IMG/VR virus record: IMGVR_UViG_3300029906_000007
Origin: an uncultured virus (IMG/VR IMGVR_UViG_3300029906_000007)
Lineage: Duplodnaviria; Heunggongvirae; Uroviricota; Caudoviricetes; Crassvirales
Direction: 5' to 3' (one strand)
Length of the DNA: 20,000 nucleotides
The notes under the pieces were generated by a model. It saw only the letters and a program-made list of their open reading frames with translations. It did no database searches and was not told where the DNA came from. Shown here one piece after another: positions 14,892-14,952 of the stretch (the stretch's first letter is position 1; the number at the start of each line of letters is the position of its first letter). Both the position numbers and the translations under genes were made by a program.

Positions 14892-14952
14892 AAATATGGA
14901 CAAATAATATAACATTATTTGTTTCGTCTTATTAAGACTCATCAGCATATTT
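14892..14952 (-). ncRNA. Type I hammerhead ribozyme
   Basis: Minus: AAAUAUG | CUGAUGA | GUCUU-AAU-AAGAC | GAA | ACAAAUAAU-GUUAU-AUUAUUUGU | C | CAUAUUU; core intact, three perfect stems, GUC cleavage triplet at 14901-14899. Confidence 0.92.

Follow-up and report, generated by a model that had tools for sequence, protein, structure and literature searches.

As described by Perreault et al. 2011 (PMC3088659), hammerhead ribozymes occur in intergenic regions of prophages and phages and were proposed to cut long phage transcripts into defined pieces; several of them flank genes, and among bacterial hammerheads type II is as frequent as types I and III. We analyzed a stretch of 20,000 nucleotides (nt), referred to as the window, from the uncultured virus record IMGVR_UViG_3300029906_000007 (IMG/VR), in which a candidate type I hammerhead ribozyme lies on the minus strand, inside an array of hairpins with GUGA loops. 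Like the phage hammerheads of that study, the window element has the canonical core and an intergenic site between co-oriented phage genes. Unlike the cases described there, it is a single type I element per locus and lies within a GNRA hairpin array, upstream of a terminator hairpin that belongs to this same hairpin family.

Theta ribozymes, which are similar to the hepatitis delta virus (HDV) ribozyme, lie beside transfer RNAs (tRNAs) of gut phages (Kienbeck et al. 2024, PMC10879173), and hatchet ribozymes are described as largely confined to Crassvirales (2026 preprint). The elements studied here resemble theta ribozymes in being small, of the self-cleaving type and near RNA genes of gut phages (in the loci L043, L065 and L107 they are found near a tRNA). 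They differ in that the hammerhead is another ribozyme class and that the window contains no tRNA. Theta ribozymes are also located on the other side of the tRNA than the hairpin-hammerhead units. In the literature covered, which did not include the RAGATH motif supplement (Weinberg et al. 2017) that may already depict the hairpin, neither hammerheads in crAss-like phages nor the GUGA hairpin were found to be reported. The hairpin family is absent from Rfam, and the cassette of hairpin, ribozyme and terminator is apparently unrecorded.

Read along the minus strand, the element has the order AUAAAUAUG-CUGAUGA-GUCUU-AAU-AAGAC-GAA-A-CAAAUAAUG-UUA-UAUUAUUUG-U-C-CAUAUUUGU, with 9, 5 and 10 pairs in stems I, II and III and with stem I as the open stem, as in type I. 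The hammerhead consensus comprises C3, U4, G5, A6, N7, G8, A9, G12, A13, A14, A15.1, U16.1 and H17, and it allows no mispairs adjacent to the core (Perreault et al. 2011, PMC3088659). All conserved core bases (C3 U4 G5 A6 N7 G8 A9 and G12 A13 A14) were present with zero deviations, the pairs G10.1-C11.1 and A15.1-U16.1 were intact, and no core-adjacent mispairs were seen. The cleavage triplet is GUC with C17 at position 14899, which satisfies the NUH rule (H17 is not G). An earlier note on this DNA had claimed a minus-strand type I hammerhead with the full consensus, and every item that it listed was found in the sequence. It had placed the element at 14892-14952, where it indeed lies; the true span is slightly larger (14954-14890), and stem I has 9 pairs instead of 7. 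The cleavage position given there, 14899|14898, agrees with hammerhead numbering (3' of GUC). Judged by its sequence, the window element is a complete type I hammerhead, and catalysis is predicted.

The minimum-free-energy fold of 14960-14888 was exactly the three-way junction (-12.8 kcal/mol, z -2.74; an equally good fold arose in 2 of 200 shuffles). A hammerhead descriptor applied to the window gave a single match, the element at 14954-14890. With relaxed stems, the descriptor matched in 7 of 1000 dinucleotide shuffles of the window; stems I, II and III of at least 5/4/5 pairs appeared in 1 of 3000 shuffles and stems of at least 7/5/8 pairs in none of 3000, while the real element has 9/5/10. 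The core pattern CTGATGA-N(5-30)-CGAAA occurs once in the window versus 0.08 occurrences expected. We also built a covariance model, R2, with four type I hammerheads from other phage contigs as its seed, leaving out the window and its near relative. R2 scored the window element at 32.2 bits (rough E value 9e-9), and the next match in the 20 kilobases (kb) reached 9.8 bits. The four seed hammerheads (three distinct sequences) have the same stem II, and their stems I and III are wholly different yet paired; pair counts exclude the MAFFT alignment, which misaligned stems III of differing length, and the R2 alignment of all topologies, in which types I and III were mixed. The exact stem II pattern was found in viral contigs in the close relative G001 and in three unrelated hammerheads without hairpins.

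G001 is a 97-kb IMG/VR record with 93% identity over the locus. It was the only relative returned when the protein of 151 amino acids encoded upstream was used for the search, and blastn of the locus against GenBank phages gave no match. Loss of core residues in close relatives, which the earlier note had named as evidence against a ribozyme, was not observed: G001 retains every hammerhead core base. In stem I, a G-C pair of the window is replaced by A-U and an A-U pair by G-C, with both sides changed, and a further A-U pair by G-U. Stem III has two distal changes that preserve pairing, so that the pair-preserving changes amount to two both-sided and three one-sided ones. Loop II is GAU in G001 and AAU in the window, and the remaining changes in the element are confined to loops. 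The G001 element also folds as a hammerhead, with an internal loop and five further pairs in stem I. Within the 900-nt locus, the window and G001 diverge most in the approximately 60 nt around stem I and past the cut site. Because of this divergence, the clean core and the compensatory changes are informative.

The minus strand of the gene-free stretch around the hammerhead contains five matches to the hairpin model R1. The GUGA hairpin has about 12 pairs and a GNRA loop, with invariant UUC/GAA closing pairs, a G-U pair and one conserved 1x1 mismatch; its apical part, GG-UUC-GUGA-GAA-UAG, is conserved, and its basal stem covaries. Of 192 core matches, the 162 in which 9 or more of 13 flank positions pair were retained. 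Among the 53 distinct copies thus pre-selected, 98.4% of cells were paired, both-sided changes occurred at 8 of 12 pairs, and 0 of 500 shuffles were as good. G-U was used at one pair in 50 of the 53 copies, and loop changes remained GNRA (GUGA to GCGA or GAGA). In 7 of 7 sources every hairpin was on the gene strand and none on the opposite strand, and R1 scored 51.7 bits on one strand versus 26.4 bits on the other. No Rfam family matched the GUGA hairpins at E values up to 10. In the two 97-kb genomes G001 and prototype crAssphage (the latter by R1 at E values up to 0.01), the hairpins are restricted to this locus. The last hairpin of the array differs in that its 15 pairs, 5 of them G-C, are followed by the U tract TTTTCTTATT. 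This hairpin (14861-14828) has the sequence features of an intrinsic terminator and is the only terminator-like site in 14300-16000 (0.1 expected). Its core recurs as a U-tailed hairpin in L107, L115, L117 and L118. We rejected the GUGA hairpin as a general host terminator: the 18-mer core gave only 5 matches in host-genome contigs, four of them true hairpins in contigs of metagenome-assembled genomes (MAGs) and one by chance.

All genes in the window are on the minus strand, and the runs carrying this DNA are chicken-gut metagenomes. The DNA polymerase shares 55-57% identity with family B polymerases of crAssphages, and the gene order is that of prototype crAssphage: helicase, the gene at the UDG position, polymerase and the gene at the SNF2 position. 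The window is, by these genes, from a crAss-like phage. The gene-free stretch lies in the replication-gene region, and its flanking genes match gp06, gp07, gp10, gp12, gp13 and gp14 of crAssphage in order (tblastn). By gene order, the stretch 14575-15466 is syntenic with the gap between gp08 and gp09 of prototype crAssphage.

This gap in crAssphage (BK010471.1, L120; 4259-4638) has the same layout of hairpin, hammerhead-like element and terminator hairpin. Three GUGA-type hairpins with the core GUCUGUGAAGAUAG are present in 4289-4595, where the record shows only coding-sequence annotation. Rfam did not recognise the crAssphage hammerhead-like element. Since Rfam was silent and the fold in long context was ambiguous, its assignment rests on the descriptor. 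It is the only hammerhead found in crAssphage and adjoins the hairpins, and the same holds for G001; the pairing of hairpins and ribozyme seen in the earlier note was borne out in both genomes. The same layout recurs in L008 and L009 (helicase identity 54% and 53%), at a distance of 1.4 kb upstream of the helicase and before the homologues of gp12 and gp13; there, the descriptor and a looser hairpin rule revealed variant hairpins and a hammerhead with a U insertion. In L008-L012, Rfam at E values up to 1 gave no hammerhead, and the exact hairpin loop motif was also absent. The hammerhead is apparently retained across crAss-like genera, with the crAssphage member assigned by the descriptor.

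We also searched viral contigs for the hairpin and for its combination with a hammerhead. The hairpin-only pattern was found in 15 stretches, and all 16 matches were true hairpins. A RAGATH-1 hammerhead (72.6 bits) begins 3 nt past the hairpin in L018 and a type I hammerhead 8 nt past it in L026; in the remaining stretches the hairpin lies just 5' of tRNA or tRNA-like genes. A composite pattern, hairpin core-N(19-49)-CUGAUGA, gave 82 matches. A paired hairpin with a hammerhead was present in 62, a hammerhead with a weaker hairpin in 2, and the other 18 were chance matches in coding DNA. By the descriptor, 59 of the 62 hammerheads were complete (55 type I, 4 type III), and 3 were RAGATH-1 by Rfam (72.6, 74.7 and 45.1 bits). 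True RAGATH-1 hammerheads directly follow the GUGA hairpin in L018/L053 and L062 (72.6 and 74.7 bits). In most recurrent type I elements, which are putative and Rfam-negative, a single U is inserted between A9 and stem II; stems I and II of these elements covary between classes. The loci that we read are arranged as stop codon, hairpin or hairpins, hammerhead, 30-115 nt, a U-tailed or tRNA-abutting hairpin, and the next gene. Among the 24 distinct type I hammerheads in the fetched loci, 16 have a GUGA-type hairpin 29-117 nt downstream. The downstream hairpin carries a U tail or directly adjoins a tRNA in the window, G001, L008, L009, L026, L034, L043, L065, L107 and crAssphage; in L043, L065 and L107, a distance of 60-105 nt separates the hairpin-hammerhead unit from a tRNA downstream of it. 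On this sequence comparison, the cassette of hairpin(s), hammerhead and terminator hairpin is recurrent and syntenic across crAss-like phages.

L025 corresponds to L018 (975-1228) without the DNA between two hairpin cores, which includes the RAGATH-1 hammerhead and one hairpin, and a chimeric hairpin is left. The deletion runs from hairpin to hairpin, with the hairpin cores acting as recombination points. Promoter-early stem-loop (PeSL) cassettes of T4-like phages are short conserved intergenic repeats within and between phages and are likewise recombination points. The hairpin-to-hairpin deletion in L025 relative to L018 resembles them; unlike PeSLs, the GUGA hairpins are found at one locus per genome and coupled to a ribozyme, and no promoter element was identified in them.

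Several observations concern the surroundings of tRNAs. In 33-37-kb phage contigs and an Alloprevotella MAG contig (L014, about 1060-1400, minus strand; L113), each GUGA hairpin is separated by 6 nt from a following tRNA-like gene that has a long insertion inside it; for one such gene, ARAGORN called a 4-base anticodon. A GUGA hairpin in a tRNA array of L016 (1189-1262) is followed 8 nt on by an apparent tRNA 5' half with acceptor and D arm, for which neither ARAGORN nor Rfam made a call. Downstream of the cluster of hairpin, hammerhead and tRNA in L065 (933-1011) and L043 (about 905-1020), a gene start is immediately preceded by a RAGATH-12-like element (44.8 bits, cut-off 75).

We favour the reading, at a probability of roughly 0.65, that the window element is a real type I hammerhead and serves as the single cutting device of a cassette of hairpin(s), hammerhead and terminator, instead of processing an array unit by unit. 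This reading starts from the motif, the fold, the retention with compensatory changes, the synteny and the exclusive co-location with the hairpins. Minus-strand transcription would pass through the array, and the nascent RNA would fold into the three-way junction once position 14890 is made; folding at this point is proposed because the hammerhead is the minimum-energy fold of the nascent transcript ending at 14890. The RNA would cut itself once, 3' of C17, just before the terminator. Hammerhead cleavage leaves 2',3'-cyclic phosphate and 5'-OH ends. The upstream RNA, with message, GUGA hairpins and ribozyme, would end in the cyclic phosphate. The downstream RNA would start at 14898 with a 5'-OH and meet the terminal GUGA hairpin about 30 nt on; because this terminator-like hairpin is so close to the cut, most of the downstream RNA would be about 75-80 nt long (14898 to about 14820). 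The purpose may be to provide the RNA that carries the hairpins with a structured 3' end made by the ribozyme and to uncouple it from the RNA downstream.

Some findings weigh against this reading. The Rfam search proposed in the earlier note gave zero matches in the window at gathering scores. A permissive search gave sub-threshold matches, the best to RF03152, the curated hammerhead variant RAGATH-1, with 30.5 of the 56.3 bits for gathering (29.9 bits in G001, also below gathering). RF00008 (type III) reached 29.2 of 48.5 bits by a permuted mis-threading without the GUC site; RF00163 (type I, cut-off 34 bits) gave nothing in G001 at E values up to 10 and was out-competed in the window within its clan. 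Like RAGATH-1, the window element has an open stem I with an A/U-rich stretch on its 5' side; it lacks the small accessory hairpin of that family (15 nt in the model); with RF00008 it aligns in the core and stem II. Natural hammerheads owe their speed at low Mg2+ to loop-loop or pseudoknot contacts (Perreault et al. 2011, PMC3088659). Such tertiary contacts are not evident in the window element, because loop II has only 3 nt (AAU) and stem I is an unbroken helix without a bulge. The closest phage hammerheads, with the same stem II, have an 8-nt loop II, UGAAAAUU, which is deleted in the window. When 196 nt of context were folded, a competing structure in which GAAA and half of stem II are buried reached -53.1 kcal/mol versus -52.1 kcal/mol for the hammerhead. 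The competing helix (14882-14934, minus strand) pairs the 3' arm of stem II and GAAA with UUUGUUUUAUUA just past the cut site and is not conserved in G001. Comparative support for the exact window ribozyme comes from one close relative, G001. The elements of crAssphage, L008 and L009, putative ribozymes that Rfam does not recognise, represent another subtype, in which A9 is followed by an extra U, and L010-L012 have variant hairpins at the locus and no hammerhead. The hammerhead is therefore dispensable in some lineages, as L010-L012 lack one there. RNA data came from four RNA-labelled runs, as contigs. In one chicken-gut sample, two RNA-library contigs of a relative, which carry loose ends, stop at about 14990 and 14887, flanking hairpin 4 and the hammerhead, with depths of 191 upstream versus 38 downstream, and a probable DNA contig spans the site. 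These breaks are a weak hint of cleavage; RNA-library contigs cannot show ends and may include DNA.

The first alternative is the reading of the earlier note, in which the array is a precursor; the hammerhead would free from it a functional small RNA about 78 nt long, made of spacer, last hairpin and U tract, and would at the same time trim the preceding unit. A piece of spacer plus hairpin is indeed a recurrent prediction (the 16 of 24 type I hammerheads mentioned above), and the hairpin of L043 stops 0-2 nt before the tRNA, so that RNase P would free such a piece. A product of about 75-80 nt is also a fair prediction for the window, since 14861-14828 is the sole terminator-like site. The spacer of this product, however, evolves faster than the rest of the locus when the window and G001 are compared, and it has indels, which argues against a sequence-specific small RNA. 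The gap of 141 nt described in the earlier note was confirmed between the hairpin cores at 14981 and 14840. The period of about 70 nt was not seen in the related arrays of L018 and L034, in which hairpins are spaced about 50 to 225 nt apart with no fixed period. Rfam (E values up to 10) and model R2 revealed no further ribozyme between the other hairpins of the array. Since five hairpins share one ribozyme, no other ribozyme was found, a common period is lacking in related arrays and the spacer evolves fast, processing of the array unit by unit is unsupported; hairpins without a hammerhead in L010-L012 also speak against it. Moreover, class A loci have no strict GUGA hairpin past the hammerhead in the fetched flank, only variants. 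We consider this alternative unlikely.

Slightly less probable still is a decaying or very slow minimal hammerhead that is kept by descent and makes no useful cleavage in the cell. The truncated loop II, the missing stem I bulge, the sub-threshold Rfam scores and the competing fold of nearly equal energy would all be expected of such an element, as would its absence from L010-L012 and its loss from L025 by recombination between hairpins. Against decay stand the two both-sided changes and one wobble change in stem I of G001 and a core that is unchanged although the surrounding 60 nt are the most divergent. The internal loop and five further pairs in stem I of G001 are, in addition, in the usual place for a contact with loop II.

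It is quite improbable that the locus acts at the DNA level, as a recombination hot spot or as palindromes for replication or packaging, with the hammerhead being incidental. The location in the replication-gene module, the deletions mediated by hairpin cores between relatives and the varying copy number of the arrays would suit such a role. The hairpins are strand-specific, however, as given above by the R1 scores and the 7 sources, and a cruciform would not equally favour on both strands the G-U pairs found in 50 of 53 copies. Loop changes that stay GNRA and the company of hammerheads and tRNAs also argue against it. Finally, a chance match to the consensus in AT-rich DNA, in which many weak helices form and the relaxed descriptor finds occasional matches, is refuted as far as sequence analysis reaches by the lack of stems of 7/5/8 in 3000 shuffles, the R2 score 22 bits above background, the retention with covariation in G001 and the recurrent pairing with hairpins in other contigs.

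Table 1. Coordinates of the features discussed (window positions unless another record is named).
Feature	Position	Strand	Evidence or remark
Type I hammerhead ribozyme (predicted)	14954-14890	minus	motif, fold, shuffles, model R2, changes in G001
Hammerhead stem I, 5' strand AUAAAUAUG	14954-14946	minus	
Hammerhead core CUGAUGA	14945-14939	minus	
Hammerhead stem II GUCUU-AAU-AAGAC	14938-14926	minus	
Hammerhead core GAA	14925-14923	minus	
Hammerhead stem III	14922-14900	minus	A15.1-U16.1 and 9 more pairs, loop UUA
Hammerhead C17	14899	minus	
Hammerhead stem I, 3' strand CAUAUUUGU	14898-14890	minus	
Predicted cleavage site, 3' of C17	14899/14898	minus	hammerhead numbering applied to the sequence
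Gene-free stretch	14575-15466	minus	between the 151-amino-acid gene (15922-15467) and the next gene (ATG at 14574); list of open reading frames
GUGA hairpin 1	15317-15352	minus	R1 49.1 bits; fold z -2.75
GUGA hairpin 2	15179-15214	minus	R1 46.1 bits
GUGA hairpin 3	15038-15073	minus	R1 39.6 bits; two G-U pairs changed to A-U in G001
GUGA hairpin 4	14968-15003	minus	R1 51.7 bits; 13-17 nt 5' of the hammerhead; loop GUGA, GCGA in G001
Terminal GUGA hairpin, 15 pairs, core UUGUUU-GUGA-AAAUAG, then UUUUCUUAUU	14818-14862	minus	R1 (14862-14827) 27.3 bits, E 0.001; fold z -7.0
Possible sixth, variant hairpin, core GCUU-GUGA-AAGU, asymmetric internal loop	15407-15451	minus	fold only, weak, z -1.5
crAssphage GUGA-type hairpin	BK010471.1 4289-4316		
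crAssphage hammerhead-like element	BK010471.1 4322-4454		5 nt after the hairpin; U insertion after A9; further GUGA hairpin inside stem III
crAssphage terminal U-tailed hairpin	BK010471.1 4568-4595		
UNCG-type motif sites	L034 about 576-590; L026 about 1360-1372; L008 1040-1060, 1305-1320; L010 3610-3626		

The possible sixth hairpin lies about 15 nt past the stop codon of the 151-amino-acid gene, and R1 did not report it at E values up to 10. Hairpins 1 and 2 are followed by a conserved UUAACUAAUGAAA-UAAAGAUAU (15300-15262 and 15164-15141, minus strand), which opens mini-reading frames of 13 and 7 codons (MKIKI..., MKLKI...) that may be remnants of duplicated gene starts. A small hairpin motif of the UNCG type (CCUCU-ACG-GGGG and variants) is seen repeatedly in related phages, both as the tip of hammerhead stem III and elsewhere in gene-free stretches. 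The G+C-richer segment 14620-14800 (minus strand), between the terminator hairpin and the next gene, is near-identical in G001; no Rfam family or tRNA was detected in it, and 14800-14700 was not significantly structured (z -0.9). A second gene-poor stretch (18020-18500, minus strand) contains several strong hairpins, the direct repeat CCUCAYUCAAAAACAAUAUAAAUCU in two copies about 75 nt apart, and a weak R1 match at 18267-18229 (18.1 bits).

In Cellulophaga phage phi14:2, long intergenic RNAs are abundant early, and one of unknown function comes from the g004-g006 region (preprint 10.1101/2020.03.07.982082). We rejected phi14:2 (NC_021806, L119) as an example of the same locus type, as R1 reached at best 14 bits and Rfam gave no hammerhead. 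The g004-g006 region (4031-4502) matched the transfer-messenger RNA (tmRNA) family of Rfam with 46 bits (cut-off 47, E 2.6e-16).

More tentatively, Crassvirales, crAssphage included, may carry one conserved non-coding RNA locus upstream of the replication genes. The GUGA hairpins would be ligand sites for a protein or RNA, and the whole would act as a sponge or scaffold RNA whose number of sites varies. From the hammerhead this RNA would receive a nuclease-resistant, ribozyme-made 3' end just before the terminator of the same hairpin family, and the hairpin would be reused beside phage tRNAs as a general processing-site partner. We hold this wider picture to be possible and clearly less probable than the role of the hammerhead as a single cutting device.

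Taken alone, the window hammerhead is one more member of a class known between phage genes since 2011. What the locus adds is a fixed cassette of three parts at a syntenic, gene-free site of crAss-like phages, apparently including prototype crAssphage, with the pairing present in at least 62 viral contigs. It offers a testable handle on the role of self-cleaving ribozymes in abundant gut phages and on the purpose of the long non-coding stretches in the early regions of crAss-like phages.

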